Virus record (IMG/VR): IMGVR_UViG_3300014202_000331
Reading direction: 5' to 3' (one strand)
DNA length: 43,339 nt
Source of the DNA: a virus
Positions 1 to 43,339 of the stretch are shown here, piece after piece (within the stretch, counting starts at the first letter, position 1; every line of letters begins with the position of its first letter). The translations under genes were made by a program, and so were the position numbers. The notes below the pieces were generated by a model. That model had not been told where the DNA came from, ran no database searches, and saw nothing but the letters and a program-made list of their open reading frames with translations.

Positions 1-140
1 ACCTCCGCGGCGCGTACCTCCGCGGCGCGTACCTCCGCGGCGCGGACCTCAGCGGCGCGAACCTCAGCGGCGCGGACCTCATCGACGCGGACCTCATCGA
101 CGCGGACCTCAGCGGCGCGAACCTCAGCGACGCGGACCTC
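1..140 (+). repeat. 15-bp tandem repeat array (pentapeptide units), part at the 5' window edge
   Basis: Strict 15-nt period GCG-[G/A/T]AC-CTC-[AGC/CGC/ATC]-G[G/A]C. Nt 1..44 are identical to 43296..43339. Confidence 0.9.
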
Positions 141-230
141 GGATCTTGGGAGCGTGGGCCCGACGGCTACACCGTGGTCCCGCGCTCAGGCGAGGGGCGT
201 ACCGACGCACTCCGGAGGGCGACGCTGTGA
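3..230 (+). CDS. Pentapeptide-repeat protein, 3' part (5' part is 42617..43339; gene spans the window junction)
   Basis: Frame from nt 3 reads [46 protein letters not shown], then a non-repeat tail [29 protein letters not shown] with stop TGA 228-230. No start codon in the window. The frame is continuous with 42617..43339 when the identical 44-nt window ends are overlapped. Confidence 0.75.
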
Positions 231-898
231 GCACCGCGCAAACACACTCGGATTCCGTAGGCAAGATCGCGGAAGCGATCGTTGCTGTCCAACGCACCTT
301 GACCACCGTGCTCAAGACCGACCAGGTCAACGCCGGCAAGCTCCACTACAGGTTCGCGCCGCTCCGCGCGATCGTCGATCTGTTGCGCCCGAGGCTCGCG
401 GAGCACGGACTCGCGATCGTGCAGCTCGTGCACGTGCATCCCGAGGGCGGCCCGGTGCTCGTGTCGGAGCTGCTCCACACGTCCGGCGAGTGGGTCCGCG
501 CGGTGCATCCGCTCCTCGGACCGATGCAGACCGCGCAGGCGATGGGCAGCGCCATCACCTACGCCCGGCGCTACTCGCTCTGCGCGCTCCTCGGAGTCGT
601 GACCGACGACGACGACGACGGCGCCGCAGCGTCGGGCTACATGCCCCCGCCGCCTCCACCACCGCCGCCCCCGGCTCCCGTGGCTCTCCAGAGCTACTCC
701 GCCGAAGGGCTCGTCGAAGCCATGTCGCAGACGTCGCCGCCGCTTGCGGCGTGGGTCCAGTCCGCGCGCGAGTGCACGGACCTCGACGCACTCAGGGGGC
801 TCGTAATGTCCGCCCGAGAGACGCTCGGAGCCTCCGAGGTCGAGCACCTGCGCGCCGTTGCCCGCGCGCGCTACGTCGAGATCGTAGGTGACGCATGA
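227..898 (+). CDS. erf: ERF-family single-strand annealing protein (recombinase)
   Basis: Track ORF 146..898. [18 protein letters not shown] matches the ERF-family signature as I recall it. GTG 227 overlaps the upstream stop as GTGA and is preferred over TTG 146. An acidic D-run and about 10 consecutive Pro precede the C-terminal domain. An exonuclease and SSB follow. Confidence 0.85.
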
Positions 899-2082
899 GA
901 AAGTTGCACCTACTACGACCGTCCAAGGCCGATCTCGCGATGCGGTGCGCGTACCCGTGGAGCGTCACGGCGCCCGCGTGGCCCGGCGACACGAGCAGCG
1001 CAGCGGCCGACCGTGGCTCGCGCATCCACCGAGCGATCGAAGCCCGCGCCAAGGGCACACGAGCGCCCGCCCACGACGACGACGAGGGCGACGCCGCAGC
1101 GCATGCGGCGAGCGCCATCACGGGCCCCGGCTGGCGCCACGAGGTCACGATCGCCTACGACCCGACGACGGACACCGCGCGAGAGATCGACGCCCCCGAG
1201 CTCGCGACCGAAGATGAGATCGTGGGCACCGTCGATGCTCTCCGCGTGGTCGATGGCTGCGTCGAGATCGTCGACTGGAAGACCGGCGCGACGGCCCGGA
1301 GCATCGATCCAGATCGAAGCCAGCAGCTCCGGTGGTACTCCCTCGCGGCGGCCCGGGCGCTCGGCGTCGAGCGCGCTCGGCCTTCGATCGTGGCGCTCTC
1401 GGAGTCGGGGTACGGCACGTGGCACGGGCGCGAGCTCGACGCCTTCGACCTGGACGAGATCCGCGACGAGCTGCGCGACTTGCTCAGGCGGGCTCCGAGC
1501 GCGCTCCCGGTCCTGGGTCGTCACTGCCGGGCGCACTACTGCCCGATCGTGGCATCCTGCCCGGCCGTACTCGCTCAGGCCAAAGCCGTGCTCCGCTCGG
1601 TGTCGACCATGGCGACGCCCACGGCCGAACCCACGACGGATGACGAGGCGCGGGCTACGCGAATCGCAGTCCGCGCGCTCGAGGCAGCGCTCGAGAAGTA
1701 CGACAACGCGGTGAAGCGATACGTCGATCGCAACGGCCCTCTCGACCTGGGAGACGGCACCTCGCTTGCGGCTGTCGAACAGGAGGGGCGCGAGTCGATT
1801 GACGCGGGCATCCCCGGCGCGGTGTCGGCCATCCGAGAGGAGCTTGGCGATCGCGCGGATGAAGCGCTCGAAGTCAAGACGAGCAAGGCCGCCATCGAGC
1901 GCGCGATCCGTGCAAGGTTGCGCGAGTCGGGCGAGATCGAGCGCGGCGCGATCAAGGCCGCCGTCGACAAGATCGACGCGCGCCTCCGGGGTCTCGGCGC
2001 CGTCCGTCAGGGCGCGCCGTATATGAAGTATGAAGAAATCCGGCCGAAGAAGGCCACCAAGAGAGGGCAGGAAGAATCATGA
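895..2082 (+). CDS. PD-(D/E)XK exonuclease, Cas4/RecB-like, with a C-terminal coiled-coil extension
   Basis: 395 aa. VEIVDWKTG (D/E-x-K motif), QQLRWYSLAA (QxxxY), one N-terminal Cys (AMRCAYPW) plus a CRAHYCPIVASC cluster typical of Cas4-type Fe-S nucleases. ATGA overlap with erf; lies between erf and ssb. Confidence 0.7.
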   Translation: MRKLHLLRPSKADLAMRCAYPWSVTAPAWPGDTSSAAADRGSRIHRAIEARAKGTRAPAHDDDEGDAAAHAASAITGPGWRHEVTIAYDPTTDTAREIDAPELATEDEIVGTVDALRVVDGCVEIVDWKTGATARSIDPDRSQQLRWYSLAAARALGVERARPSIVALSESGYGTWHGRELDAFDLDEIRDELRDLLRRAPSALPVLGRHCRAHYCPIVASCPAVLAQAKAVLRSVSTMATPTAEPTTDDEARATRIAVRALEAALEKYDNAVKRYVDRNGPLDLGDGTSLAAVEQEGRESIDAGIPGAVSAIREELGDRADEALEVKTSKAAIERAIRARLRESGEIERGAIKAAVDKIDARLRGLGAVRQGAPYMKYEEIRPKKATKRGQEES

Positions 2083-2501
2083 TCAGCGCAACGATCTACG
2101 GCCGACTCGGAGCCGATCCCGAGGTCACCGTCACCCATGGAGGGACCTCGGTGCTCAAGCTCCGCGTGGCCTGCGACCACGGCTACGGCGACAAGAAAAC
2201 CACGACCTGGGTGCGCGTCGCTTGCTTCGGCAGGCTCGCCGAATCACTCACGGGCAAGCTCGCCAAGGGCAACCGCGTGATCGTCACGGGCGAGCTGTAC
2301 TCTCAGGAGTGGATTGCGAAGGACGGCACCGCCAAGGTCGGCATCGAGCTCGACGCGCGCGACGTGCGCATCATCGACTACGCCGACAGCGGCGCGGGCC
2401 AGCAGCGACCGGCGCAGCCGCAACGATCCGCGCCTCAGCGCGGAGCGCCGCCGCCGCCCCCGCCGTTCGCCGGTGCGCCCGGTGATGACATCCCGTTCTA
2501 A
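2079..2501 (+). CDS. ssb: Single-stranded DNA-binding protein
   Basis: 140 aa. OB-fold N-terminus (TTWVRVACFGRLAE, VIVTGEL), Gly/Pro/Gln-rich linker and the canonical acidic tail DDIPF. ATGA overlap with the upstream gene. Confidence 0.95.
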   Translation: MISATIYGRLGADPEVTVTHGGTSVLKLRVACDHGYGDKKTTTWVRVACFGRLAESLTGKLAKGNRVIVTGELYSQEWIAKDGTAKVGIELDARDVRIIDYADSGAGQQRPAQPQRSAPQRGAPPPPPPFAGAPGDDIPF

Positions 2502-3008: not shown

Positions 3009-3011
3009 CCG

Positions 3012-3191
3012 ATGGATGACCTGACGCGCTACGTCGACCACCCAGCCATTCCCACGGCGAACCTGGAGAGACTAGCGCGCGCCGTGGGAGCGCTCGTTCC
3101 TCCGAGCTTCGTGAAAGACCCGGTGCGCCGGATGTTGCTAGTCCAACGAATCGTCGCGCGGATGCGACAGGAGAGAGGGAAGAAGAGATGA
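3012..3191 (+). CDS. Hypothetical small protein (59 aa, below the track cutoff)
   Basis: ATG 3012 to TGA 3189-3191. Reads MDDLTRYVDHPAIPTANLERLARAVGALVPPSFVKDPVRRMLLVQRIVARMRQERGKKR. Fills the gap between neighbours; ATGA overlap with the next gene. Confidence 0.4.
   Translation: MDDLTRYVDHPAIPTANLERLARAVGALVPPSFVKDPVRRMLLVQRIVARMRQERGKKR
3134..3147 (+). promoter_or_regulatory. GTTG-N6-CAAC dyad (GTTGCTAGTCCAAC), about 40 nt upstream of the ParB-like/TerL/portal genes
   Basis: Same dyad, with a following GAATC, as the five sites on the minus arm. Lies inside small ORF 3012..3191. Confidence 0.3.
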
Positions 3192-3985
3192 TTAAGTTCA
3201 GAGAAGAGATAGTCACGCCCGAGATGGCTCACCAACTGCTAGCCGTCACGCCGCACGCTCGTCAGATCGTCGCGTCGAGGGTGAAAACCTACGCGGCAGA
3301 CATGGCTCGCGGATGGTGGAGGCTCACGGCCGAGCCCGTCAAGATCGCTGAGGATGGTCTACTCCTGAACGGTCACCACAGGATGCACGCTGTCGTCATG
3401 GCAGGCGTCAAGGTGCGCATGCACTTCGCTTACGGAGTCAGCGCGGATACGAAGATCGTGCAGGACACAGGTCTTGGCGTTCGTGCTCGCGACTGGTCGG
3501 ACAGAAAGAACGTGGGTCACGGGCTCGCGATCATGAACGCGATCCTTCGCGCGACTGGCTACATACATCACACAGCGTCGAAGTTGTGCCTGTTCGCAAT
3601 GTGGGACGAGTTTGGCGACGAGCACTTGCAATTTGCGTCGGCGACCAAGAGCCGATCCGTGAATGCATCGGCCCGGATGGCCCTTGCGCTCGTTCATCGC
3701 GTCGATGTTGCACGCGCCGAACTCATGCTGTCGAGACTGAGCATGGAGGAGTCCGCTCCTACGAAGTCCCCCGAACACACGTGGCTTCGGCTCATGAGCT
3801 CCAGGTATTGGAGCGCGAAGTCTCAGGAGGCCAACAAGCTCGCGCTCAGCATGGCGAGGCTTTGCGCAAGGGGTGAGTGTGTGAGCATCCTCAGGGTTGC
3901 TGACCCTGAGCCAGCGATCCAGCTCTTTGGGCTTGGACCAGTGCTGGCGCTGTGCGGTAAGCCTGCCTCATGTCCCAAGACCTGA
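3188..3985 (+). CDS. ParB/Srx-like nuclease-domain protein (candidate small-terminase-like DNA recognition partner)
   Basis: 265 aa. EDGLLLNGHHRMHAV resembles the ParB N-terminal (D)GxHR motif. Sits immediately upstream of, and overlapping, the large terminase. Lower GC than the genome. Confidence 0.6.
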   Translation: MIKFREEIVTPEMAHQLLAVTPHARQIVASRVKTYAADMARGWWRLTAEPVKIAEDGLLLNGHHRMHAVVMAGVKVRMHFAYGVSADTKIVQDTGLGVRARDWSDRKNVGHGLAIMNAILRATGYIHHTASKLCLFAMWDEFGDEHLQFASATKSRSVNASARMALALVHRVDVARAELMLSRLSMEESAPTKSPEHTWLRLMSSRYWSAKSQEANKLALSMARLCARGECVSILRVADPEPAIQLFGLGPVLALCGKPASCPKT

Positions 3986-5403
3986 TCGATCTAGACCGGC
4001 GCATCGTCGCCAAGGGCGGGCTCTGCTCCTTCATGCGGCTTGCGTGGGACTCGGTTGAGCCAGGCGCGCGCTTCGTGCCTTCGTGGCATCTGCGCGCGCT
4101 GTGCGGCGTCCTGGAGGACGTGACGCACCGTCGGCGTACGCGCGTCGCGATCAACGTTCCCCCGGGCACCGGCAAGAGCCTGACGACGGGCGTGTTCTGG
4201 CCCGCGTGGACGTGGATCCATCAGCCCTGGCACCGATGGATGAACGTGTCGATCGACGAGCTGCTCGTGACGCGCGACGCTCGCAAGCTGCTCGATCTCG
4301 TGTCGTCGCGATGGTTCGTCGACCGCTGGGGACCGGTCGTGAGGTCGCGCAACGTACCCGTGTCGGACTTCCGCACGATCCACGGTGGCGGACGCTTCTC
4401 CACGTCCATCCGGGGCAAGGGAATCGGCCACCACGCGCACACCCAGGTTGGCGACGACTTGGCGAAGGCCAAGGACTTCGACTCGTCGGAGCTGCAACTA
4501 TCCTGGGAGCTGTGGAGCAACACGTTTGCCTCGCGCGGCATCAAGGGACCGAACGGCGAAGACTTCGCGCGCGCGATCATCATGCAGCGCATCGGCGAAG
4601 GCGACCCGTCCGACCGCGCGGTGCAGTCGGGCTACGATCACGTTTGCTGGCCCATGCTCTGTGAGCTCGACCGCCTCGACCCGCTCGACGAGCGCACGAC
4701 CGAAGGCGAGCCCCTGTGGCCCGGTCGCTACTCGGTCGAAGACCTCGAGCTACTGCGCCGCGAGACCATCATCGACGGCGGCTACGATGCGTGGGAGACG
4801 CAGTATCAGCAGCGCCCCAGCGCCCCTGGCGGGCAGATTCTCCGGCCCGAGTGGTTCGACGTCGTCAGCGAAGCCGACGTGCCGAAGCACGGGCAAACGA
4901 TCCAGTCGTGGGATCTGTCGTTCAAGGGCAAGGAGTCGAGCGACTACGTCGCCGGGCAGTGGTGGCGCGCGGCGTGGGTCGGCGACGAGTTGCACTTCTT
5001 TTGCCTCGGCGAGCCGGTGAACCAGCGGGCGACGTTCCTCGAAACGTTGGCGCTCATACGATCGAAGCGCAGCGCGTGGGAGTGCTCGCGCATCGTCGTT
5101 GAAGACAAGGCGAACGGCCCGGCGCTCGAAGACGTGCTGTCGCAGGAGATGCCGGGCTCGATCGAGCTGTACGACCCGAGGCAGGCAAGCAAGAGCGCCC
5201 GCGTTCACTCGGTCTCGGGCAGGTGGGCCTTGGGGCGCGTGCACCTCGTTCGTGGGAGCTACATCGATCGGTGGCGCAAAGACTTCTGCGCGTTCCCCCG
5301 CGTGCGGCGCGATGACGAGGTCGACGCAGCGACGCAGGCCATTCGATACCTGGACGCCGGTACCTCGCTTTTCAGCCGCGCCATGAGTATGATCCGGCGA
5401 TGA
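3970..5403 (+). CDS. terL: Terminase large subunit
   Basis: 477 aa. Walker A VPPGTGKS, QYQQRPSAPGG, IVVEDKANGPAL and DDEVDAATQAIRYL nuclease-domain acidic residues. Followed by the portal gene. Confidence 0.9.
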   Translation: MSQDLIDLDRRIVAKGGLCSFMRLAWDSVEPGARFVPSWHLRALCGVLEDVTHRRRTRVAINVPPGTGKSLTTGVFWPAWTWIHQPWHRWMNVSIDELLVTRDARKLLDLVSSRWFVDRWGPVVRSRNVPVSDFRTIHGGGRFSTSIRGKGIGHHAHTQVGDDLAKAKDFDSSELQLSWELWSNTFASRGIKGPNGEDFARAIIMQRIGEGDPSDRAVQSGYDHVCWPMLCELDRLDPLDERTTEGEPLWPGRYSVEDLELLRRETIIDGGYDAWETQYQQRPSAPGGQILRPEWFDVVSEADVPKHGQTIQSWDLSFKGKESSDYVAGQWWRAAWVGDELHFFCLGEPVNQRATFLETLALIRSKRSAWECSRIVVEDKANGPALEDVLSQEMPGSIELYDPRQASKSARVHSVSGRWALGRVHLVRGSYIDRWRKDFCAFPRVRRDDEVDAATQAIRYLDAGTSLFSRAMSMIRR

Positions 5404-6863
5404 CTCGCGACCCCAAGTTGAGCGCGATCCAGAAGGCGGCGATCTACGTCGACGGCTGGATCAACACCTGGACGAAGCTTGGGACGTCGCTCGATTCGCA
5501 GACGCACACACGGTTCGTGCGCCCGGCGCGCCTGCCTGACGAGGAGCTGTCGTCGCTCTACCACCACGACGACATCGCGCGGATCGTCTGCGAGGTGTAC
5601 CCCTCCGAGGCGCTGCGTCGCGGCTTCGGCGAGCTTCCGCTCGAAGTCGGCGGCGACTTCGAACGCCTCCGCGTGCGCGAGGTTTTCTCCGAGGCTGCCG
5701 CGCTCGGCCGGGCCTTCGGCGGCGCAGCCGTCGTTGTGGGCCTCGAAGGCCAGCCCGCCGAGACGCCGTGGACCACGCCCGGTCGCGTGACGTTCCTTGG
5801 GCTCCACGATCGGCGCTACGTGCACCGCGACTACTCAAGCCGCAACACGAACCCGGAGAGCCCGAACTACGGCAAATCGACGCTGTACCGCGTCCAGAGC
5901 GCGACCGGTGGCACGGATACGATCGTGCACCGCTCGCGCATGATCTTCTTCGGTGGTGCTACGACGGCCGAGCGCGAACGCGAGGAACTGGACGGCTGGG
6001 ATTATTCGGTTTTGCAATCGATCTACCCCTGGATCCGCAGCTACTCGAACGCCCACCTTGCGGCCGGGAGCATGCTCAGCTCGGCCACCGAGGGCATTCT
6101 AAAAATGCGCGGGCTCATCTCGGCCATCGCAGGCGGACGCCGCGAAGACCTGGAGACGCGCGCCACGCTCATGGATCTCGGGCGCTCGGTGGCGAAGACC
6201 GTGATGATCGACGCCGAGGGCGAGGACTACAGCAAAATCAGTACGAGCTTCACCGGTATCCCGGAGATGATCGACCGCTTCGCCTCGCGCCTCTCGGTCG
6301 CCACGGGCATCCCTCAGAGCGTGCTCGCCGGCCACCGCACCGTGGGCCTCGGCGACACGGGCGCCTCCGAGCTGCGCGCCTGGTACGACCGCGTAGAAGC
6401 CTACCGCGCGAACGAGATCGACCCGCGCATCAAGCGCTTCGGCGAGCTGGCCTACGGGCGCCCGCTCGAGCTCGAGTGGCCCAGCCTGTGGCAGCCGACG
6501 GACAACGAGGTCGCCGACCTCCAGGTCAAACGAGCCCAGCGCGACCAGATCTACGTGGCCTCTGAGGTCGTGCTACCGGACGAGGTCGACGTCTCGGACA
6601 TCTACCCGGCGCGCGATCTATCCCTGCGTACGCCGGCCGGCGACCCCGGCGACGAGCCCGAGCCGGTCGAGTCCGACGACGTGCCGACGGTCGATGCCGC
6701 AACGACCCTCGCCGAGCAGATGACCGCGGCCGGTGTCGACCGCTGCGAGCACGGCCGAACGAACCGCTGCCCGCTCTGCGGCGTTGAGCGCGCGCGCGGC
6801 ATCCAGACGGGCGAGGACGGGGCCGTGGGCTTCATCCGCGGGACGTGGCGTGCGCTCGCGTAG
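5400..6863 (+). CDS. Portal protein (DUF1073-like)
   Basis: 487 aa. ATGA-coupled to terL and followed by a MuF-like gene. N-terminal text resembles DUF1073 portals (recalled). C-terminal CEHGRTNRCPLC zinc-ribbon-like motif. Confidence 0.8.
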   Translation: MTRDPKLSAIQKAAIYVDGWINTWTKLGTSLDSQTHTRFVRPARLPDEELSSLYHHDDIARIVCEVYPSEALRRGFGELPLEVGGDFERLRVREVFSEAAALGRAFGGAAVVVGLEGQPAETPWTTPGRVTFLGLHDRRYVHRDYSSRNTNPESPNYGKSTLYRVQSATGGTDTIVHRSRMIFFGGATTAEREREELDGWDYSVLQSIYPWIRSYSNAHLAAGSMLSSATEGILKMRGLISAIAGGRREDLETRATLMDLGRSVAKTVMIDAEGEDYSKISTSFTGIPEMIDRFASRLSVATGIPQSVLAGHRTVGLGDTGASELRAWYDRVEAYRANEIDPRIKRFGELAYGRPLELEWPSLWQPTDNEVADLQVKRAQRDQIYVASEVVLPDEVDVSDIYPARDLSLRTPAGDPGDEPEPVESDDVPTVDAATTLAEQMTAAGVDRCEHGRTNRCPLCGVERARGIQTGEDGAVGFIRGTWRALA

Positions 6864-26873: not shown

Positions 26874-27845
26874 TCAGGCGTCCATCAGTCCGTCGAAGTA
26901 GCACATCGACAGCGGCCGGCGAACGACCGTGCCGCCCACTCGCGCGTGACAGGGCACCGAGAAGTGGAGGCTCGCGGCCTGTGCCGGGAGCGACTCGAAG
27001 CGGATCGGCACGATGGCCGACAGATTCTCTGGGCTGGGGTCGTAGACGATCGCGCGCTCGCCGTCGCCCTGTGCATCCGCGAGATCGAGCTCCACCCAGG
27101 ACTCCACCTCGGTCACGAGCTGCTGCGAGCGCAAGAACACGCTGAGCACCGTGTCGGGAATGGTCGCGCTGTAGGGCTTCGTCGCGACGGCCTTGTAGCT
27201 CTCGGTCCCGAGCAGCATGCGGAGCCCGCCGTTGCCGTGGACCTGTTTGCTCTGCGTCCACACCTGGAAGGCCATCGACATGAGGTCCTCGAGGATGTTC
27301 TCGCCGGTCTCGTTGCCCCAGTCGAAGTTGAGGCCCGTGTCGACGAGCGGAATCAGCGTGTGGTTCAAGAAGCCCGGCACGCCGGTCGAGGTGTCGCCGT
27401 GCGCCACGATCGAATCGATCACTCGATCGATCGCCTCGCGAGCCATTCGGGCCTTGCGCGACTCGAGCTGGTAGCCCGTCTTCGCGGCGCGCCGAAGGTC
27501 CGTCAGCGAGTAGCCGAAGGCCGCGCCCACGCTGACGATCGGCGTCGCGCGCTTGGTGCCGAACTCCTCGATGTTGGGCAGGTCGGTCGCGTAGTTCGCG
27601 ATGATCTTCGCGATGCCCACGCGGTCGTAGAAGGTCCAAGCGAAGGTCTCGGAGCCCTCGTCGATCCCAGGCTCGAAGGGCACGAGCGTCAGCGCCTTGA
27701 GCGCCGGGAACTCGGCCTCGGTGATCTGGGCTCGGAGGTGCTCGAGACTCTGCTCGAAGTGGACGGTTTCGTTGGCATCCAGACGGACGCCCGACTTGGT
27801 GTGGCCGAGAATAGCCTCGAATGCGGCGCGGTCGCTCATGGTCAT
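26874..27845 (-). CDS. Major capsid protein (DUF2184-like, HK97 fold)
   Basis: 323 aa. Position after protease/scaffold/decoration. Good GGAG 4 nt upstream. Text resembles DUF2184 capsid proteins, which co-occur with DUF1073 portals and DUF2213 proteases (recalled). Confidence 0.8.
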   Translation of the reverse strand: MTMSDRAAFEAILGHTKSGVRLDANETVHFEQSLEHLRAQITEAEFPALKALTLVPFEPGIDEGSETFAWTFYDRVGIAKIIANYATDLPNIEEFGTKRATPIVSVGAAFGYSLTDLRRAAKTGYQLESRKARMAREAIDRVIDSIVAHGDTSTGVPGFLNHTLIPLVDTGLNFDWGNETGENILEDLMSMAFQVWTQSKQVHGNGGLRMLLGTESYKAVATKPYSATIPDTVLSVFLRSQQLVTEVESWVELDLADAQGDGERAIVYDPSPENLSAIVPIRFESLPAQAASLHFSVPCHARVGGTVVRRPLSMCYFDGLMDA

Positions 27846-27873: not shown

Positions 27874-28389
27874 TCAGGGGCCGGTCGGTCCCGTGGGTCC
27901 GGTCGGGCCAGTCGGGCCAGTCGCGCCCGCGGTCAGGTTGACGTCGACGAGCACCAGGCCCGCGTCTACCGCGCCGACGAGCACCGTGACGCCGGGCACC
28001 ACGGTCGCGGTCGTATCGTCGCCCCGCAGCTTGCCCGCATCCTCGCCCGAGTGGACGCAGTAGGCCGCAGCGTGCGCCGCGAGCGCGCCGTTGGTGGTCG
28101 CCCAGATCCGGCCAGTTCGCAGGCAGCCGATGACGGACTTCTGCGCGAACGGGCCGGGCTCGCGCGTCGGGTCGTGCACGATGAAGCCAACCGCCTTGGC
28201 GATGTCCTCCGTCTCGGTCGGGAGGATCGCGCCGTTCTCCGCGGTGCCCTTGCACACGAGCAGGCCCGCAGGCGAACCCGCGACCGTCTCCAGGACGTAC
28301 GACAGGATCGACCCGTTGAGGTGCGTCCCGTTGTCGGCGGCGAGGCCCGCGAGGGCACGAACAGGCTGGTCGAGGATCGTGGTCTGCAT
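27874..28389 (-). CDS. Head decoration-like protein (DUF2190-like) with a collagen-like (GPT)n C-terminus
   Basis: 171 aa from ATG 28389 in track ORF 27874..28617. Lies between the scaffold and capsid genes. Ends AGATGPTGPTGPTGPTGP. Confidence 0.55.
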   Translation of the reverse strand: MQTTILDQPVRALAGLAADNGTHLNGSILSYVLETVAGSPAGLLVCKGTAENGAILPTETEDIAKAVGFIVHDPTREPGPFAQKSVIGCLRTGRIWATTNGALAAHAAAYCVHSGEDAGKLRGDDTTATVVPGVTVLVGAVDAGLVLVDVNLTAGATGPTGPTGPTGPTGP

Positions 28390-33910: not shown

Positions 33911-34288
33911 CTACCTCTCTTGTTCTTCCATCACCACCGAGGCCCACACGTGCGGCTCGGTGCCATCGGCGACACGCCAGCTACATGCGACCACGTGCCG
34001 CAACGTGTCGTCGCGTACGATGCGCGCCTTCGTCATCGCATCGAGAACGATCTTCTCGACGTTGTCGCCGTCGCATCTGAGCGGCGGCGCGACCATGACG
34101 ATCTCGACGCTCACGCGCCCGTCGAAGCGCTCGGGCCATTCGGCGGCGATGCGTGCCGCGTCCAGCGCACGACACACGCGGGCCTGGTATTCGACCGTCT
34201 TGCGAGGAGTCGACGTGCCTCGCGTGCTCGAGATGCGCGCGCGGGCCTTGGGTACCGCGGGACCTGGGATGCGGACTTGCAGGATCAT
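33911..34288 (-). CDS. rusA: RusA-family Holliday junction resolvase
   Basis: 125 aa. PKARARIS..., CDGDNVEKIVLDAMTKARIVRDDTL (the D-x-D-N..K...D...DD pattern). ATGA overlap with the upstream gene. Confidence 0.8.
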   Translation of the reverse strand: MILQVRIPGPAVPKARARISSTRGTSTPRKTVEYQARVCRALDAARIAAEWPERFDGRVSVEIVMVAPPLRCDGDNVEKIVLDAMTKARIVRDDTLRHVVACSWRVADGTEPHVWASVVMEEQER

Positions 34289-35328
34289 CGAAGCGCCTCA
34301 TGGATCGCGCCGCTCATGATGAGCCGTCCGATGACTTCGGCGCACTGGGGCACGACGGCGTTTCCGATGGCTCGCAGTCGTCGGTTCCGGTTCGGTCGGG
34401 GGCCTCCGTCGCTCGGCCGGACGCGCGGTCCTCTCGGCACGGCTCGCGGCGACTCCCATTCTCGCGGGGCTTCTGCGGGACCACTAGGCCAGCGGTCCAG
34501 CCAGGCGGGAACCCCATGAGTTCCTCGACCCATGCTGGATTGAGCGCCATCTTGGGACCAGCTCGACGAGCCATCGTCTCGAGCGATGCCTTGCCCTTCA
34601 TTGCGTAACTTCCCCGACCGTCGCCCGGATCGCCGTTGTTCGAGCTCCCGTAGCTCGTCGCTGTCGGCGTAGGCCACTGCGCGACCTGACTCGGGAGGGA
34701 CCACTCTCTGCCAGGCCCCTTCCAGTCCCGAGGCACCGCCGTCGCCGGCCTCCGAACGACCGCATCCGTGAGCGTGGTCCCCGCGTGCTGTCCGGGTTTG
34801 CACTTGTCCGTCATCATCGATCCGCTCGAGCTCGCGTCGCTCGCTGTCGCGGTAGGCCACAACGAAGATCCTCTCTCGCCGGTGTGGTGCTCCGACGTCT
34901 GCGGCAGATAGCTGGATGGCGGCCGAACGGTAGCCGAGAGCTCGCAGGTCGTGCCGCACGTGAGGCAGCCAACGCGCCGCCCCGCTCGCCACGTTCTCGA
35001 CGACGGCCCAGGGGGGGGCGAGCTCTTCGAGGACGCGCCGATACTCTCGCCAGAGCCCTGAGCGCTCGCCTTCGAGCCCGGCTCGCTTGCCGGCGCTGGA
35101 GACGTCCTGACAGGGGAATCCTCCGGCCACGAGTCCCACAGGAGCAAGAGTTGCTTTTCCGGCCAATCGCACATCGTTGCAGCTCCTATCTACGCTCGGC
35201 CACCACCTCGACAGCACCGAGCGGCACCCCTCGTCCTGTTCGACCTGCCACACCACGTGACCCATCCCAGCCCGCTCGAGCCCGAGCTCGAGGCCGCCGA
35301 TCCCGCTGAACAGCGAACCGATCTTCAT
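34285..35328 (-). CDS. DNA (cytosine-5)-methyltransferase; central region apparently out of frame (see findings)
   Basis: ATG 35328 (ATGA overlap). Motif I LFSGIGG, IV GGFPCQDVS, VI VVENV, VIII QLSAADVGAPHRRERIFVVA, X RLRAIGNAVVPQ. The middle of this frame is low-complexity, while frame +1 carries WPTPTA and LNPAWVEELMGFPPGWT. Confidence 0.8.
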   Translation of the reverse strand: MKIGSLFSGIGGLELGLERAGMGHVVWQVEQDEGCRSVLSRWWPSVDRSCNDVRLAGKATLAPVGLVAGGFPCQDVSSAGKRAGLEGERSGLWREYRRVLEELAPPWAVVENVASGAARWLPHVRHDLRALGYRSAAIQLSAADVGAPHRRERIFVVAYRDSERRELERIDDDGQVQTRTARGDHAHGCGRSEAGDGGASGLEGAWQRVVPPESGRAVAYADSDELRELEQRRSGRRSGKLRNEGQGIARDDGSSSWSQDGAQSSMGRGTHGVPAWLDRWPSGPAEAPREWESPRAVPRGPRVRPSDGGPRPNRNRRLRAIGNAVVPQCAEVIGRLIMSGAIHEALR

Positions 35329-35591
35329 CGCAGCACCAACCTTCGCGCCATCTCGCACAGGGGGCACCACCCCCCGGCCTGGTGTCCCTCGAGCTCGCCT
35401 CCGCATGCGTCGCACTGCCCCGGCCGCATCAACGGCAGCTTCACGGGCCTTCGCATTGCATCGACGCGGGCGGCGACAGCCTCGCGAACGCGCGGCTGTA
35501 GCTCAGGTTGCGCCCGTAGCCGAAGCTGCCCCCCGGCGTAGTACGCGCTCGCCCCGTCGTCGCGGAGCGTGCCCCATGTCTCGGGGTTCAT
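35325..35591 (-). CDS. Zinc-ribbon protein
   Basis: 88 aa. CDACGG...CPLC. Confidence 0.5.
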   Translation of the reverse strand: MNPETWGTLRDDGASAYYAGGQLRLRAQPELQPRVREAVAARVDAMRRPVKLPLMRPGQCDACGGELEGHQAGGWCPLCEMARRLVLR

Positions 35592-36042: not shown

Positions 36043-36588
36043 TCATGTCCTCCCCTTCGGCTCGGCGTCCTTCTCCAGCGTCACCTTGAACAGCGCGCCG
36101 CTCGCCGTGTGGAAGGCCACGATGCCCTCGGGCCTCATGAAGCCGGGCGCAGCGAAGGAACCGCCCTTGCGGAGCATGCTGAGCGCAGCGCACACCGCGT
36201 CCGTTGGGTCGTCGATAGTCGACCCGATTATCGGCACCACACCGCAGCATGCGGGCCGCTTCTCCGGGTCACTCCAGCGCGATACGTTGAACAGCGAGAA
36301 GCGCCGCTCGCTCAGGCCGTAGCGTCGCTGGATGCCCGCCCCCCACCACTCGCCGTAGTGGTAGCCCGGACCGAGCCGCCGCAACTCGGCGGCGTTCTCC
36401 TCGACCCAGTACGCGAAGCCGAAGTTGTCATCCATCGGCGTGATCCATCGCGTGCGCGAACCGGCTCGCACCGTCTCGCCGTCTTCGCTCACGTGGACCA
36501 CGGCGTTCGTGCCGTCGATCTTCTCGGTGATGATCCACTCGCGATTGAACCGCGCGATCTTCGGGAATGCCTTGAACTCGATCTCCAT
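36043..36588 (-). CDS. ATP-dependent RNA ligase-like nucleotidyltransferase (minimal, about 180 aa)
   Basis: Motif I EKIDGTN, GEWWG, FSLFNV, EGIVAF, LFKV. ATG 36588 has AGGAAG upstream. The alternative GTG 36612 overlaps the helicase stop. Confidence 0.75.
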   Translation of the reverse strand: MEIEFKAFPKIARFNREWIITEKIDGTNAVVHVSEDGETVRAGSRTRWITPMDDNFGFAYWVEENAAELRRLGPGYHYGEWWGAGIQRRYGLSERRFSLFNVSRWSDPEKRPACCGVVPIIGSTIDDPTDAVCAALSMLRKGGSFAAPGFMRPEGIVAFHTASGALFKVTLEKDAEPKGRT

Positions 36589-36608
36589 GTCCGTCTTCCT
36601 CTCTCTCT

Positions 36609-38087
36609 TCACCAGGCGATCTCCGATGCCGCAACCGTTGCAGCATCAACGAACGCTTGCTCCTCGGCGGTCCACTTCGGCCGCTTGTGTCCCTTGGGCG
36701 GCTGTCGGCCCTTCTCGCGCTGCCAGCGGTGCCACACCATGCCCGGCTTGTACGGGTGCAGGCCGCGGCCCATGCGCTCGCGGTTCTCCTCGCGCCAAGC
36801 CTCGACCATCGTATCCCACGCCGCAAGCGCCGCGCTCGGCTTCACGATGCGCGCCGCGTCGACCTCGACAAGCTCGCCCGCGGTCTCGTCCAGGCTCACC
36901 TCGCGCCACGGAAGCTCCGCATCGCACTCGGGGCACACGCGCACGCCCAGCGCCATCACGGCGAAGCACGCCGGGCACATCTTCGCGCACTCGGGATTCT
37001 TGCCCGTGCGGCGCCTCGGCGGATTCAGCTCCCACTCGCGATCGTGGTGCGGGAGCCCGTGCTCGAGCGCGCATCCGGCGTGGTCCAGAATGAGCGCCGA
37101 CACGCCTTGCCACGGTCGCAGGATGCGCCCGGCCATTTGCAGGTACAGCCCGAGAGACTTCGTTGGCCTCGCAAGGATCAGGCACTTCGCCGAGGGCTGG
37201 TCCCACCCCTCCGTGAGCACGCCCACGTTGATGACGATCAGCGTCTCACCTCGTTCGAGCCGCCCCAGGATGGCCGCGCGCTGGTCGGCCGGCGTCGTGC
37301 CGTCGAGATGCTCGGCCGCATGCCCGCGCTCGCGGAAGCGCTCGACGATCTGCTTCGAGTGCTCGACGGTGACCGCGAACCCCACCGTCCGGCGCCCTTT
37401 GGCGTGCTTCTCCCAATGCTCGACGATGTCGCCGACGAGCCGACCTTCGCTCATCACCTCGCCAAGCTGCCGCTGGTCGTAGTCGCCCGCGGTCGTCTTC
37501 ACCCGCGACAAGTCCGGCGCACGGTCGGGCGGCACGCTCAGGACACGCGGCGCCACGAGGTAGCCCTCGGCGACGAGTTGCGACACGGGCGCCGCGAGCA
37601 CCATCGAGTCATAGGCCGCGCCGAGCCCCTTGCCGTCGCCGCGCACGGGGGTCGCGGTGAAGCCTAGGTGTACCGCATCGGGGTGGTCCTCTCGTAGGCG
37701 CTGGTAGCTCTGCGCGAGGGCGCGGTGTGCCTCGTCGACGATGACCAGCGAGCACGGGGCAACCGTGCGAGTGCGCAGGCTGTCGACGCTCGCGACCTGC
37801 ACCAGAGCGCTCGGCCGCCTGCGTCGGTCACCGGCGCGCACGATGCCGATCTCGCCCTCGGGGATGCCGGCGTCGACCAGCTTGCGCGCGGCCTGGTCGA
37901 TCAGCTCGATCCGGTGCGCGACGATCATGCACCGGCGCGAGCGCTCGACAGCGCCTCCAACGATCGAGGAGAAGATCACCGTCTTGCCGCCGCCCGTGGG
38001 CAGAACGCAAAGCACGCTCCGACGCCCGGCGCGCACCTCGCCGCGCAGCCGCTCGATCGCCTGCTCCTGGTAGGGCCTGAGCTTCAC
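36609..38087 (-). CDS. Superfamily 2 DEAH-box helicase with a C-terminal zinc ribbon
   Basis: GTG 38087 in track ORF 36609..38219. LRPYQ, motif I LPTGGGKT, II VIVDEAHRA, III GFTATP. CPACFAVMALGVRVCPEC. Confidence 0.9.
   Translation of the reverse strand: MKLRPYQEQAIERLRGEVRAGRRSVLCVLPTGGGKTVIFSSIVGGAVERSRRCMIVAHRIELIDQAARKLVDAGIPEGEIGIVRAGDRRRRPSALVQVASVDSLRTRTVAPCSLVIVDEAHRALAQSYQRLREDHPDAVHLGFTATPVRGDGKGLGAAYDSMVLAAPVSQLVAEGYLVAPRVLSVPPDRAPDLSRVKTTAGDYDQRQLGEVMSEGRLVGDIVEHWEKHAKGRRTVGFAVTVEHSKQIVERFRERGHAAEHLDGTTPADQRAAILGRLERGETLIVINVGVLTEGWDQPSAKCLILARPTKSLGLYLQMAGRILRPWQGVSALILDHAGCALEHGLPHHDREWELNPPRRRTGKNPECAKMCPACFAVMALGVRVCPECDAELPWREVSLDETAGELVEVDAARIVKPSAALAAWDTMVEAWREENRERMGRGLHPYKPGMVWHRWQREKGRQPPKGHKRPKWTAEEQAFVDAATVAASEIAW
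36637..36650 (-). promoter_or_regulatory. GTTG-N6-CAAC dyad upstream of the RNA ligase gene (inside the helicase 3' end)
   Basis: Minus strand reads GTTGATGCTGCAACGGTTGCGGCATCGGAG, with an overlapping GCAACGGTTGC palindrome. Confidence 0.3.
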
Positions 38088-38164
38088 TCTCCGTCGTCCC
38101 CTTCGAGCTGCGCGATCTTCACTTCGCCGCGCGAGGCGACGACCGTTGCGTGACGCATGCTCAT
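38084..38164 (-). CDS. 26-aa bridging micro-ORF (translational coupling element?)
   Basis: MSMRHATVVASRGEVKIAQLEGDDGE. ATGA overlap with the glycosyltransferase stop and GTGA overlap with the helicase start. Confidence 0.25.
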   Translation of the reverse strand: MSMRHATVVASRGEVKIAQLEGDDGE

Positions 38165-39024
38165 CCGATGGCCCTCTCCAGTGTCTCGAGGTCGTGTGCC
38201 CCATCCTCGCGGAAGCCACGCCTCTCGGGTCCCGTGCCGCGAATCGCGTAGGCCATCCGCAGCCACACGCGCGCCTCGGCGAGCTCGCCCTGCCGCCAGC
38301 GGACCCACGCCGCGAACCAGGGCAACTCGAGCATCCACGGGCAGTGCACGAGCCCCGCTACCAGGTCGACGACCGGATCCCATTCGCCCGAGTCCCACCC
38401 GCAGCGCGCGCCCTTGAACAGCGCCCACCCCGCTTGCTCGCGGTGCCAGTCCGACGACGACTCACGGCGCATCGCAGCGCCGCGGTACCAATGCCGCGCG
38501 GTGTGCCACCTCTCCGCGAGTCGCTCTGTCTCGCCGAGGTAGAATCGCCATCGCATCGAATCCGGGTCGGCCTCGATCTGCATGCTCAGGAGCCCTCGAT
38601 CGCGAACGATCTTGCTCTCGAGGCGCGCCGACGACTTCGGCATTTCGGCGGACCTCACCCCGGGCAACAGCGCCCGCTTCGGAGCCCCCTCGAGGTACTC
38701 ATGGACGAGGCCCACGTAGCGCGCGCCGCTGCCCGCGCGAATCAGCCTCGGCGATCGGTACATGTCGATCGAATCGACGTCGTAGGCATCGATCGACTCG
38801 TCGAGCTCGGGGCGCTCGCCTTCGACGATCAACCGCTCGTCAGCGTCGAGCATGAGCGCCCAGCCCTCGCTCACGAGGCCCAGGCCCCGGTTCCGCAGCT
38901 CGCCGAAGCCCCCGCGCCCGAGTGGGTCGCTCACGCGCACGATGCGGTCGACGTAGCCCGAGCACGACAACTCCGCGTCTGCGGTGCTCTCGTTCGGGGC
39001 GTGCAGAATGATAGCTGTGATCAT
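38161..39024 (-). CDS. Family 2 glycosyltransferase-like protein with a TPR-like C-terminal half
   Basis: 287 aa from ATG 39024 (GAGGAG upstream) in track ORF 38161..39402. MITAIILHAPNE, LMLDADERL (DxD), LVHEYL, then helical-repeat text. Confidence 0.6.
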   Translation of the reverse strand: MITAIILHAPNESTADAELSCSGYVDRIVRVSDPLGRGGFGELRNRGLGLVSEGWALMLDADERLIVEGERPELDESIDAYDVDSIDMYRSPRLIRAGSGARYVGLVHEYLEGAPKRALLPGVRSAEMPKSSARLESKIVRDRGLLSMQIEADPDSMRWRFYLGETERLAERWHTARHWYRGAAMRRESSSDWHREQAGWALFKGARCGWDSGEWDPVVDLVAGLVHCPWMLELPWFAAWVRWRQGELAEARVWLRMAYAIRGTGPERRGFREDGAHDLETLERAIG

Positions 39025-39816: not shown

Positions 39817-40187
39817 GACCGCGCGCTCGCGTCGAGCACGGCCTGCACTTTGGGCGCAAGCGCACGCATCTCTCGATGACGCGCGCACTCACACCAGCCG
39901 GAGGTGGGTGCCTCCTGTTGGAGAATACGAGCCACTCGCTCGTACTCGGACTTCGAGCAGGTGACTCTGGAGAGCCAGGCCACCACTTCGGCCGCGGGTC
40001 CTACGACCCACTTGCCGAGGAAGCAGGGATCGCCCTCGGCGATCACTACTGCGATCTCACCCTCTTTTGGGGCGATCTCGCACGCGTAGTCGCGAGGGGC
40101 CATGTAGGCCCTCTCGACAAGGCAGGGCCCGAAGACCACCCTGCCGAACCCGCTTGCGGCGCCGGGCAATGCCCTCACGGTGCTCAT
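39813..40187 (-). CDS. Hypothetical protein
   Basis: 124 aa from ATG 40187 (ATGA overlap with the Cro-like stop). Confidence 0.5.
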   Translation of the reverse strand: MSTVRALPGAASGFGRVVFGPCLVERAYMAPRDYACEIAPKEGEIAVVIAEGDPCFLGKWVVGPAAEVVAWLSRVTCSKSEYERVARILQQEAPTSGWCECARHREMRALAPKVQAVLDASARS

Positions 40188-40396
40188 GACTGCTCTCCTC
40201 GTTGCTCCTCCCACACGATGCCGTAGTGTCGGTGGAGCGCGTCACGGTGCTCCTTCAGCGGCGTCGACACGCCGCGCACCCATCCGTCGACAGCCTGGCG
40301 CGACACGCCGACGGCGCGCGCGATCTCCGTGAGTGTGAGTCGGGGGCGCTCGACCAACTGCGCGAGCGCGTCCCTCCCGAGTGGTGTTTTGGGCAT
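40184..40396 (-). CDS. Cro/CI-type helix-turn-helix transcriptional regulator
   Basis: 70 aa. LTLTEIARAVGVSRQAVDGWVRG. First gene of the minus arm, next to the divergent control region. Confidence 0.8.
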   Translation of the reverse strand: MPKTPLGRDALAQLVERPRLTLTEIARAVGVSRQAVDGWVRGVSTPLKEHRDALHRHYGIVWEEQRGEQS

Positions 40397-40573: not shown

Positions 40574-40762
40574 ATGGGAACCGCAAATACGACGATCGAT
40601 ATGTTGAGTGATGTTCAGATCAGGGCGCTCCGAGCCGAGGCCGCGGCGGCCGGCGACGAGGCCACCGTGAGCGACTGCGACACCGCGCTTGAGGTGCCGA
40701 CCGCCGAAGGGCCGCGCGCTCGCATCGTGGAGGTCATCCGCAACGCCGAGGCCCAGCGATGA
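40574..40762 (+). CDS. Hypothetical early protein
   Basis: 62 aa. First gene of the plus arm. Confidence 0.5.
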   Translation: MGTANTTIDMLSDVQIRALRAEAAAAGDEATVSDCDTALEVPTAEGPRARIVEVIRNAEAQR

Positions 40763-40923
40763 CCCGCGCTGACTACTCGATCGACATCGACGACGAGCCC
40801 GACACGACCTACGAAGACGAGCGCGAGCTCGAGGACGAGCCCGACACGACCTACGAAGACGAGCGCGCGCTCGACGATGAGTACCGCCGCGACTGCATCC
40901 GCGGCATCCGGAGCGGCGGCTAG
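40759..40923 (+). CDS. 54-aa acidic protein with an internal tandem repeat
   Basis: MTRADYSIDIDDEPDTTYEDERELEDEPDTTYEDERALDDEYRRDCIRGIRSGG. ATGA overlap upstream and TAGTG overlap downstream. Below the track cutoff. Confidence 0.45.
   Translation: MTRADYSIDIDDEPDTTYEDERELEDEPDTTYEDERALDDEYRRDCIRGIRSGG
40792..40867 (+). repeat. 42-bp-period tandem duplication (34-nt identical cores)
   Basis: GACGAGCCCGACACGACCTACGAAGACGAGCGCG at 40792..40825 and again at 40834..40867. Confidence 0.9.
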
Positions 40924-41458: not shown

Positions 41459-41562
41459 CGCCCGACGAGTCGAGGGTCATCATGCGCGAGATCGGCGCCC
41501 TCATGCGGGAGTACGCTCTGCTCGGTGGAGCCCTCGCCGACCTTGGGAGGCACGACCTGTGA
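41455..41562 (+). CDS. 35-aa micro-ORF
   Basis: VTPDESRVIMREIGALMREYALLGGALADLGRHDL. GTGA overlaps at both ends. Confidence 0.3.
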   Translation: MTPDESRVIMREIGALMREYALLGGALADLGRHDL

Positions 41563-42128
41563 GACACGCTCACTCCATGGACTCGGTCGAGTGGTACACG
41601 CCCGCGCCCGTCGTCGACCGCGCGCGAACGTCGCTCGGGGGGCGCATCATCCTGGACCCGTGCTCGTGCGAGCTCGCCCAGTCCGTCGTGCGCGCCGAGG
41701 GCTACTGCGAGACCGATGGCCTCACGGCGCTGCGGCGCTGCGCCCGCGGCGACACCGTGTTTGCCAACCCGCCCTCGCCGCCGCTGCCGTGGCTGATCGA
41801 GTGCGTGCTCGCGTGGCAGCGGGGCGCGCGCCTCGTGTACCTCGCGTACAGCATCCAGCAGATCCAGCAGGCGGCGAACTGGGGCAGGCTCTCGCTCGTG
41901 GGGGCGCAGCTCGTCATCCCCTACGCGCGGATCGCCTACGATGCGGACGCCGAGCGGCTCCGAGCGAGCTACGCAGCCCGGGGCGCCAAGGTGCCCCGCC
42001 GCATCGCCGAGGCCCCCGCAGGCACCCGCGTACGTGGTACGCAGCCCCCGCACGCGAGCGCGCTGATCCTACTCGGCGCCGACCCCGACCCCTGGCGCGA
42101 CTTCGGCGCCATCGCCACGATCGTTTGA
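41559..42128 (+). CDS. Phage Dam-like DNA N6-adenine methyltransferase homologue with an atypical NPPS motif
   Basis: 189 aa. SVEWYTPAPVV and ILDPCS resemble the phage Dam family. The catalytic tetrad position reads FANPPSPP rather than NPPY/F. Confidence 0.6.
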   Translation: MRHAHSMDSVEWYTPAPVVDRARTSLGGRIILDPCSCELAQSVVRAEGYCETDGLTALRRCARGDTVFANPPSPPLPWLIECVLAWQRGARLVYLAYSIQQIQQAANWGRLSLVGAQLVIPYARIAYDADAERLRASYAARGAKVPRRIAEAPAGTRVRGTQPPHASALILLGADPDPWRDFGAIATIV

Positions 42129-42149: not shown

Positions 42150-42620
42150 ATGTCTTCGACCACCGACCAGATCCAGCCCGCCCGTGGCCGGCTCCAAAGC
42201 AACCTGATCGACTTCGCGCGCCGACGCAGCATCATCGAGGCGGCCACCCTCGAGATCCGAAAGGCTCTCGCGTGCTGCTACGAGCACGTGCCCGACGGCG
42301 ACACCATCGAGGCCGGCGAGGCTGTGGCCCGCGCGATCAAGGCCGCCGTGTGCATCTACGACGACGCGATCCACGACCTGTCCCGCGAGCGCGCCGACAT
42401 CGAGACGCACGAGGCCGCGGCCCACGCGCTGCTCAGGGACCGCGCGCCGTGGCCCGAGTTGCTCGCGGCGTACGCCAGGCCCGGCGACCCGCACCGCGTG
42501 CTGTCGTGGGTGCGCTCGGTGTGCCGGGACGGCCTGGACGCCGACGACGCCGACAGCCGCGCCGAGCTCGAGTCCCAGGCCGCGGACTTGCTCGCCTCGA
42601 TCGCAGCAGGTGAGCGATGA
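42150..42620 (+). CDS. Hypothetical protein
   Basis: 156 aa. GAGAGGGA lies upstream of the ATG. Confidence 0.6.
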
Positions 42621-43339
42621 TCGTCGAGCTCACCCTCGCTGAGCTGCGCGAGCGCAACGCCTGCGATAGTGGCTATGCCTTCGCCGTCGCTCTCGCCGAT
42701 GCGGCTGGCGTCGTGCGCCTGGACATGTCCCCGCTCGCGTGGGTATGGCTCGAGAGCCACGGGCGCGCATGGGCCTCGTGGCTCGGGTTGCGAGCGCCGT
42801 ACCTCAGCGGCGCGAACCTCAGCGACGCGGACCTCCGCGGCGCGTACCTCAGCGGCGCGTACCTCAGCGGCGCGAACCTCAGCGGCGCGTACCTCCGCGG
42901 CGCGGACCTCCGCGGCGCGTACCTCCGCGGCGCGGACCTCAGCGGCGCGAACCTCAGCGGCGCGGACCTCCGCGACGCGGACCTCCGCGACGCGGACCTC
43001 AGCGACGCGGACCTCATCGACGCGAACCTCAGCGACGCGGACCTCAGCGACGCGGACCTCAGCGACGCGGACCTCAGCGACGCGAACCTCAGCGACGCGT
43101 ACCTCCGCGGCGCGGACCTCCGCGGCGCGAACCTCAGCGACGCGTACCTCCGCGGCGCGGACCTCCGCGGCGCGGACCTCAGCGACGCGGACCTCAGCGA
43201 CGCGGACCTCAGCGACGCGGACCTCATCGACGCGAACCTCAGCGGCGCGAACCTCAGCGACGCGGACCTCAGCGGCGCGTACCTCCGCGGCGCGAACCTC
43301 CGCGGCGCGTACCTCCGCGGCGCGTACCTCCGCGGCGCG
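42617..43339 (+). CDS. Pentapeptide-repeat protein, 5' part (runs off the window end; continues at 3..230)
   Basis: ATG 42617 (ATGA overlap). A 59-aa N-terminal region ([22 protein letters not shown]...) is followed by 36 A[D/N/Y]L[S/R/I][G/D] units. 723 nt = 241 codons with no stop. Absent from the ORF track because it is open-ended. Confidence 0.85.
42794..43339 (+). repeat. 15-bp tandem repeat array (36 units in this part)
   Basis: Every unit fits GCG-[G/A/T]AC-CTC-[AGC/CGC/ATC]-G[G/A]C when read unit by unit. Confidence 0.95.

Follow-up and report, generated by a model that had tools for sequence, protein, structure and literature searches.

The window analysed here, the whole 43,339-nucleotide stretch of IMG/VR virus record IMGVR_UViG_3300014202_000331, is a tailed-phage genome of about 43.3 kb with 68.5% G+C, and it carries across its two ends a gene that encodes a pentapeptide-repeat protein and is built on a tandem array of 15-nt units. 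The 5' part of the gene lies at the end of the record and the 3' part at its beginning (Table 1). Tandem Repeats Finder (TRF) identified a 15-nt period in both parts, with 35.9 copies at 42801-43339 and 9.3 copies at 1-140, each with 91% matches, no indels and one common consensus. Read in register, 41-42 units fit the pattern G[G/A]C-GCG-[G/A/T]AC-CTC-[A/C][G/T]C, in which 11 of the 15 nucleotide positions are constant and four vary. Deviant units were found only at the boundaries of the array: the first unit, at 42797, is CCG-TAC-CTC-AGC-GGC (Pro-Tyr-Leu-Ser-Gly, with Pro for Ala), and the last passes into GGA-TCT. Variation at the four remaining nucleotides always falls on the first or second position within the i-1, i+1 and i+2 codons, and all third codon positions are constant; 11-12 unit types are present out of 18 possible. 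Neighbouring units are more similar than in shuffled order (z=-2.7), and blocks of units recur at lags of about 12-14 units. A 4-unit periodicity, corresponding to one coil, was looked for in the unit similarity of the window array and none was found.

The gene product consists of an N-terminal domain of 59 amino acids (aa), about 43 units of A-[D/N/Y]-L-[S/R/I]-[G/D] (about 10.7 coils) and a tail. It matched the Pfam pentapeptide family PF00805 in seven stretches with 284.8 bits against a cutoff of 20.2 (E=7e-87); a weak match to the Pfam 'Decapeptide' family (PF25296) was also seen. The plus-strand frame of the array is the one backed by Pfam and by orthologues, and the open reading frame (ORF) on the opposite strand, which is not a gene, arises because stop codons are periodically absent. 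An AlphaFold2 model based on an alignment of 16 sequences (mean predicted local distance difference test score, pLDDT, 77; predicted template modelling score, pTM, 0.66) has one bridge residue per five residues from 62 to 272 and predicts a right-handed quadrilateral beta-helix with four units per coil. A small alpha/beta N-domain was modelled at residues 1-58 (pLDDT about 90 over residues 1-40), and the tail was modelled without confidence, including a C-terminal helix at 294-301 with pLDDT below 50. The top Foldseek matches of the model in the PDB were all pentapeptide solenoids, namely designed beta1 proteins, HetL, Np275/276 (root mean square deviation 0.6 A over 155 columns), QnrB1, MfpA, AlbG and EfsQnr. 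In such proteins the first and third residues of the unit point inwards (PMC10886550), and the constant Ala and Leu of the window units occupy those positions. The protein has a net charge of -28 and a pI of 4.07. An initial annotation, made from the sequence alone, had described a strict 15-nt array at 42794-43339 and 1-140 with 11 invariant positions, a pentapeptide-repeat gene with its Ala and Leu facing the core, variation confined to outward-facing residues and an acidic product. The TRF and unit-by-unit readings, the hidden Markov model match and the calculated charge agree with it on each of these points, and the beta-helix for which it had suggested structure prediction is predicted, with solved pentapeptide proteins as best matches.

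Using the N-terminal 90 aa as a query we identified P0001 (78% identity, 95 aa) in a 44.6-kb contig (L001), a protein that has the window-type N-domain and tail with only about four units between them. P0002 (L042; 140 aa) has the same N-domain and tail and about 12-13 units. The window N-domain shares 38-45% identity with P0002, P0004 and P0007 over 87-100% of the 90-aa query and shows the family pattern L..L....AC..G ... W..WL ... W. A profile of this N-domain recovered 199 representative clusters, nearly all of them small proteins, about 50-274 aa long and mostly 80-230 aa, that carry the domain at residue 1; at 302 aa the window copy is the longest seen, the others reaching at most 274 aa among the top 150 representatives. 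A Pfam search of the N-domains found nothing, and Foldseek found no PDB match to the fold of the N-domain model (best E=3.8). A tblastn search of cultured phages with a consensus-like N-domain gave no match, and a locus search with the single window N-domain gave no confirmed relatives. A search for the DNA pattern of the WERGPDGY tail revealed many more tail-bearing pentapeptide genes in viral, metagenomic and metagenome-assembled genome (MAG) contigs; these genes have at least three different N-domains, and several of the contigs end inside the array. The members of this unnamed AC..G N-domain family, which come from metagenomic phages and prophages (for example P0001, P0002, P0106, P0112, L002, L033 and L045), share with the window gene the N-domain, the tail and an early or replication-recombination context, and homogenised arrays occur in many of them as in the window; the window differs in having the longest copy and in a tail end replaced by fusion with the next gene. 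In some elements the gene is duplicated. Contig L002 carries two paralogous N-domain/array/tail genes a few kb apart (2836-3492 and about 4085-4726), one with a homogenised and the other with a diverged array, and L031 and L033 are paralogous copies on one Acidobacteriaceae MAG contig, L031 being frameshifted within its array.

The arrays of the window, of L004, L006, L010, L027, L029 and L044 and of Caulobacter phage RW have third codon positions that are invariant, or nearly so, within each array, and several alleles occur at the first or second nucleotides of their surface codons. The fixed codons differ from one array to another (GGC or GGG, CTC or CTG, GCG or GCC). Older arrays are diverged at third positions, as in the second copy of L002 with a third-position difference of 0.41. 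In six arrays, which were picked after inspection, 1 of 30 third positions was variable against 19 of 36 first or second surface positions (Fisher p=8e-6). This pattern is the hallmark of arrays that evolve in concert through slippage or unequal exchange; in addition, either the diversity of exposed residues is selected or diversity elsewhere is purged.

The closest relatives were recognised by the genes on either side of the array. Homologues of the upstream 156-aa gene were P0235 (93% identity) and P0236 (86%, on 12 Logan contigs), and those of ERF, a single-strand annealing protein, were P0237 (100%, JGI), P0328 (at least 90%) and P0238 (91%, on 13 Logan contigs). L050 and L052, from the same MEGAHIT assembly, have flanks 94-96% identical to those of the window; their array (L050:2340-2478 and L052:1-380, with at least 25 units in L052 alone) is about 82% identical to the window array without one-to-one register, and therefore the array turns over much faster than its flanks. 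It has a 30-nt (two-unit) super-period with the flavours ANLGG, AYLSG and ADLGS, a feature that echoes the weak PF25296 match of the window protein. The L048/L051 lineage uses another codon set, GGG-GCC-xAC-CTC-xGC. Orthologues between conserved flanks have 4, about 12-13 and about 43 units. These unit numbers and the differently patterned arrays support the earlier proposal that the array seems recently expanded or homogenised and might vary in copy number. The array behaves as a 15-bp minisatellite, whose turnover would proceed by replication slippage or unequal recombination. A homogenised codon set and a unit number of its own characterise each lineage, with polymorphism retained only at first and second positions of the three outward-facing codons. 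We are highly confident of the identity of the gene and of this evolutionary mode.

The 3' end of the gene has a history of its own. In L051 (58-330) the repeat gene is separate, and a 74-aa Cys-rich gene (CDRCHAGACAC) sits between it and ERF. In L052 (380-615) the repeat gene and this small gene have been joined into one through the loss of about 36 nt between two GGCTAC repeats, and the window (141-230) has an L052-type fusion plus a further in-frame deletion of 147 nt that leaves 19 residues of the small gene. The WERGPDGY-type part of the window tail is present at 141-170, and its ARR(K/R) end is replaced by the remnant TVVPRSGEG... of the next gene. The GTGA coupling to ERF was therefore inherited from the 74-aa gene: the coupling reported in the initial annotation is present, and it stems from a fusion and deletion specific to this lineage, the relatives having the 74-aa gene in between.

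A circular or terminally redundant assembly was opened inside the repeat gene. The window closes with the same 44 nt with which it opens, and overlaps of 29 and 14 nt match too because the sequence is periodic. Simple joining of end to start is out of frame and reaches no stop, since the window ends on a full codon and starts with the last two bases of one. The ORF is restored only by removing 44, 29 or 14 nt, which gives 302, 307 or 312 aa from the ATG at 42617 to the TGA at 228-230. The raw count is 45.7 units, and 42.8 are obtained for the 44-nt merge only; the figure of 42-43 units given earlier holds under that merge and so depends on the assembly. The record does not allow the true copy number to be settled, and a value of exactly 43 units is doubtful. 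Software that scans for terminal repeats would take this 44-nt 'direct terminal repeat' as a sign of genome completeness; it is really an assembly junction of uncertain register.

Within the array, 486 distinct 31-mers were counted, 556 of 598 45-mers were unique and so were all 77-mers; the longest exact repeats are 65 nt and one periodic run is 59 nt. The array cannot be an invention of the assembler, given the uniqueness of all 77-mers and the 486 distinct 31-mers, which require a length of at least 516 nt if all derive from a single haplotype. Its reality is further backed by the 46 units with the same consensus in the cultured phage RW and by the closest relative with at least 25 units on a k141 contig. 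A serious possibility, against which we lean, is that the repeat gene exists and the array as recorded is partly a product of assembly, collapsed, mis-joined or pooled from several strain variants, with unreliable length and unit order. Both ends of the record lie inside the array with 44 nt in common and raw joining is out of frame; the array holds exact repeats of up to 65 nt, and the record broke at a 44-nt run though a 59-nt run had been crossed, from which the GAYLR run appears to be longer or heterogeneous in the reads. A break in a k=45 de Bruijn graph was considered as the source of the 44-nt overlap and rejected, as k=45 could not cross the 65-nt exact repeats. The retrieved contigs of the closest relatives all stop inside the array from one side or the other (P0236 at the 5' side, the L050/L052 pair at both sides and P0238 at the 3' side; 2 of the 12 contigs with P0236 and 1 of the 13 with P0238 were inspected). 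Because assemblies fragment at repeats, pentapeptide repeats show a 26-fold enrichment in long-read viromes over short-read viral assemblies (PMC9238414). The ERF protein of the window is also encoded on a JGI contig that measures 43,421 bp and so exceeds the window by 82 bp. On the other side, the mostly unique 45-mers and wholly unique 77-mers mean that reads of at least 100 nt could order the array, repeats are usually collapsed by assemblers and not invented, and an equally long array is present in a cultured phage. P0237, identical to the product of 227-898, lies on two JGI contigs, and the 82 bp by which the longer exceeds the window may belong either to the array or to the terminal overlap. 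In practical terms, such arrays are a systematic cause of breaks in short-read phage assemblies and of spurious direct terminal repeats.

The repeat gene belongs to a tightly packed plus-strand early operon that runs in the order small ORFs, methyltransferase-like gene, 156-aa gene, repeat gene, ERF, PD-(D/E)XK nuclease and single-stranded DNA-binding protein (SSB). Its ATG overlaps the upstream TGA (ATGA) and its TGA overlaps the GTG of ERF (GTGA). These overlaps and the Pfam matches support the location in the early arm and the coupling to an ERF/exonuclease/SSB module that had been suggested for the gene. The 156-aa gene had no match in Pfam, PHROG or PADLOC, and PADLOC-DB models matched neither the repeat protein nor its neighbours. 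At the genome level, the large terminase is only about 30% identical to that of any cultured phage, and a megablast search of positions 140-6000 against the INPHARED phages gave no nucleotide match. A search of IMG/VR for an exact DNA pattern of the window was likewise negative, and exact look-ups of its ERF, nuclease and SSB proteins and of P0237 retrieved no entry.

Table 1. Coordinates of the repeat gene, its parts and other genes of the window
Feature	Position	Strand	Remarks
Array part A	42794..43339	+	36.4 units of 15 nt; TRF, unit table, per-position counts
Array part B	1..140	+	9.3 units; bases 1-44 are a copy of 43296-43339; TRF
Terminal overlap copy	43296..43339	.	Assembly junction inside array, in GAYLR run; exact overlap 44/29/14 nt
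Repeat gene, 5' part	42617..43339	+	ATG to record end; in frame with array; PF00805 E=7e-87
N-terminal domain, 59 aa	42617..42793	+	Small alpha/beta; family-specific; without Pfam family or PDB fold match
Tail of repeat gene	141..230	+	WERGPDGY-type tail, then 19 residues as remnant of downstream small gene; TGA 228-230
Shadow ORF, 184 aa	42673..43227	-	Opposite strand of array; not a gene
Helix-turn-helix (HTH) regulator	40184..40396	-	Divergent from early operon; PHROG transcriptional regulator/repressor matches; relatives with HTH_3 at same place
Methyltransferase-like gene	41559..42128	+	Two genes upstream of repeat gene
156-aa gene	42150..42620	+	ATGA-coupled to repeat gene; homologues P0235 and P0236 mark closest relatives
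ERF-family single-strand annealing protein	227..898	+	GTGA-coupled; PF04404 E=7.6e-19
PD-(D/E)XK exonuclease	895..2082	+	PF12705 E=4.2e-14
SSB	2079..2501	+	PF00436 E=7.6e-19
C5 cytosine methylase, RNA ligase, ResIII/DEAD helicase, RusA (grouped)	34285-35415, 36043-36612, 36609-38219, 33911-34288	-	

Other genes of the window include those for a C5 cytosine methylase, an RNA ligase, a ResIII/DEAD helicase, RusA and a second methyltransferase-like protein, the one encoded in the early operon; in L033 the repeat gene is immediately preceded by an RNA ligase. A very acidic small ORF of 54 aa (DDEPDTTYEDERELEDEPDTTYEDERALDD) is found in the early operon of the window at 40759-40923; it includes a 42-nt tandem repeat (40787-40881, 2.3 copies, 92% matches), had no PADLOC match and could be another small acidic early protein. 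A 9-nt tandem repeat (GGGCCAGTC, 5.6 copies, 80% matches) was found at 27878-27927, just upstream of the minus-strand ORF at 26874-27845.

In six lineages the repeat gene is found one or two genes upstream of recombination or nuclease genes. Downstream of it lie ERF, a PD-(D/E)XK nuclease and SSB in the window, a 5'-3' exonuclease fused to AAA_24 in L001, a 5'-3' exonuclease in L042, ERF in L045, a 758-aa PD-(D/E)XK protein in L044 and recombination/nuclease genes in L051/L052. The repeat gene adjoins that of a DnaB helicase in L002 and L043. In the P22-like phage Salfasec13b a pentapeptide gene follows ral in an operon with arf, erf, abc2 (anti-RecBCD) and lar. Phages commonly carry pentapeptide-repeat genes, with matches in 178 phage records and in several PHROG families. 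Our tentative proposal for function is that an early-expressed accessory protein with a rod-like negative surface would serve to decoy or inhibit some host enzyme that handles DNA. Its target could be a restriction enzyme or an end-processing nuclease of the RecBCD/AdnAB type, and blocking these would shield both the DNA of the phage and what the neighbouring ERF/exonuclease/SSB recombination module produces. A decoy or inhibitor is favoured because position and charge resemble those of Gam, Abc2, gp5.9 and Ocr, and by this analogy a DNA-mimic or decoy role is plausible. Homogenised DNA with exposed-residue variation, fast turnover and linkage to recombination and nuclease genes make the family a reasonable candidate for a new class of anti-defence proteins or modulators of DNA metabolism. 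The explanation as a whole, joining gene identity and array evolution to a putative decoy function, seems to us probable, with some reserve.

Several observations weigh against this explanation. The charge is distributed in bands, with -4 to -7 on each of coils 4-5, 7-8 and 10-11 and neutral to +4 values on coils 1-3, 6 and 9 (coil 9 being +4), which makes the protein a poor fit to an ideal B-DNA mimic. An orthologue with about four units, that is one coil, implies that a long rod may not be essential, and since P22-like phages carry both a pentapeptide gene and abc2, RecBCD would be a redundant target there. The matching PHROG families are all of 'unknown function' but one, a weak match to 'tail fiber protein' (E=1.3e-07), and no phage pentapeptide protein with an anti-defence role characterised by experiment turned up in searches of the literature. 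Scores fall far under the curated NCBIfam thresholds for Qnr (NF033086, 87.6 bits against a cutoff of 240) and MfpA (NF000349, 79.3 against 360). Finally, the assembly from which unit order and copy number were read had broken within the array.

An alternative role would be one in which the beta-helix is a rigid spacer or scaffold of adjustable length and activity resides in the N-domain and/or the tail, with a partner unrelated to DNA mimicry. The conserved parts are the N-domain and the WERGPDGY-type tail while unit number ranges from about 4 to about 43, the N-domain forms a distinct family of 199 clusters without known fold, and charge varies between arrays (L010, for example, is made of ADLGG/ADLRG and L027 differs). 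We nevertheless think a spacer rather unlikely: surface polymorphism exceeds synonymous polymorphism across arrays, which suggests that the helix surface itself is under selection, one tail type occurs with at least three unrelated N-domains, and the window gene has a fusion remnant where the end of its tail should be. A topoisomerase ligand of the Qnr/MfpA type, binding host gyrase or topoisomerase IV and modulating supercoiling or protecting from poisons or toxins, is improbable. The predicted fold is common to QnrB1, MfpA, AlbG and EfsQnr in the Foldseek comparison, the window protein is acidic and phage-encoded gyrase modulators exist (reviewed in PMC10886550); against this stand the low NCBIfam scores, a length of about 10.7 coils that exceeds MfpA or Qnr monomers, a strictly periodic model without Qnr-type loops and a C-terminal dimerisation helix that was not modelled confidently. 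Targeted mutagenesis, for example by a diversity-generating retroelement, in place of slippage with selection would account for variation confined to a few codon positions with invariant third positions, and was rejected as scarcely credible, since TRF found no second (template) array in the window, no reverse transcriptase was found among its 10 largest unassigned ORFs, the xAC codons vary at the first base only with a constant second-position adenine where adenine-directed mutagenesis would alter both, and many unrelated contigs show the same pattern.

To return to the decoy proposal, the arrays might act as contingency-like loci, in which slippage would keep units identical and alter rod length while diversifying selection re-patterned the exposed residues, a speculation that we rate as quite unlikely. 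If true, it would provide a decoy surface that can be re-tuned rapidly, much as TALE repeats have their variable residues, and that would follow the nucleases or restriction systems of the host through an arms race, and the window would be the longest and most acidic example found so far. The most interesting outcome is the pattern at the level of the family, with concerted evolution, surface-only diversity, fast turnover and linkage to recombination modules.

Among known systems, the units of MfpA, Qnr, AlbG and EfsQnr are diverged at both the DNA and the protein level, and the contrast drawn with Qnr, MfpA and AlbG in the initial annotation is a fair one. These proteins share with the window protein a right-handed quadrilateral beta-helix and an acidic DNA-like surface (PMC10886550). 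They differ from it in having about 8-9 coils, in forming dimers through a C-terminal helix and in not being phage early genes. Like the window gene, those for lambda Gam (in the gam-bet-exo gene arrangement), P22 Abc2, T7 gp5.9 and Ocr encode acidic proteins in an early operon beside a phage annealing protein and exonuclease; sequence and fold are dissimilar, and the likeness is one of gene position and charge only. DNA mimicry is on record for Gam, gp5.9 and Ocr (PMC5218532, PMC9836394 and PMC7261183).

Closer parallels are found among phage pentapeptide genes. The orf232 gene of Salmonella phages L and ST64T and the Salfasec13b gene lie in an early-left operon with erf, abc2 and restriction-alleviation genes. 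In contrast to the window gene they have about 15 imperfect repeats, with no strict identity at the DNA level reported, their hosts are low-GC enterobacteria, and their N-domain is different, as the window N-domain did not align in tblastn. Between L and ST64T, which are >99.9% identical, orf232 differs by one 15-bp unit (PMC8022706). The closest counterpart of the array itself is gp016 of Caulobacter phage RW (MK929790.1, QDH50377.1, 'pentapeptide repeat family protein'), with 46.4 copies of a 15-bp unit, 92% matches, no indels and a consensus, GGCGCGGACCTCAGC, identical to that of the window. Only four nucleotides vary in it, all at first or second positions of surface codons, and third positions are invariant as in the window; the protein is likewise acidic (-16) and encoded in the early region. 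The flanks of the two arrays are unrelated, gp016 having in place of the AC..G N-domain a helical N-cap, which is short, and in place of the WERGPDGY tail a domain of about 80 aa at the C-terminus. The residue set of gp016 comprises N/D, S/R/H and G/S, without the Y, I and i+2 Asp of the window, and unlike the window gene it is not adjacent to ERF. In GB2A, a sibling isolate of RW, 375 bp (25 units) of the pentapeptide gene are deleted (PMC11053796). The novelty implied for the window array in the initial annotation is accordingly not upheld, given the same length class, consensus and surface-only variation in RW and the published differences in unit number. Pentapeptide arrays that are repetitive at the DNA level and variable in unit number are already on record for phages, and the window gene is a new, unusually long member of this known kind.

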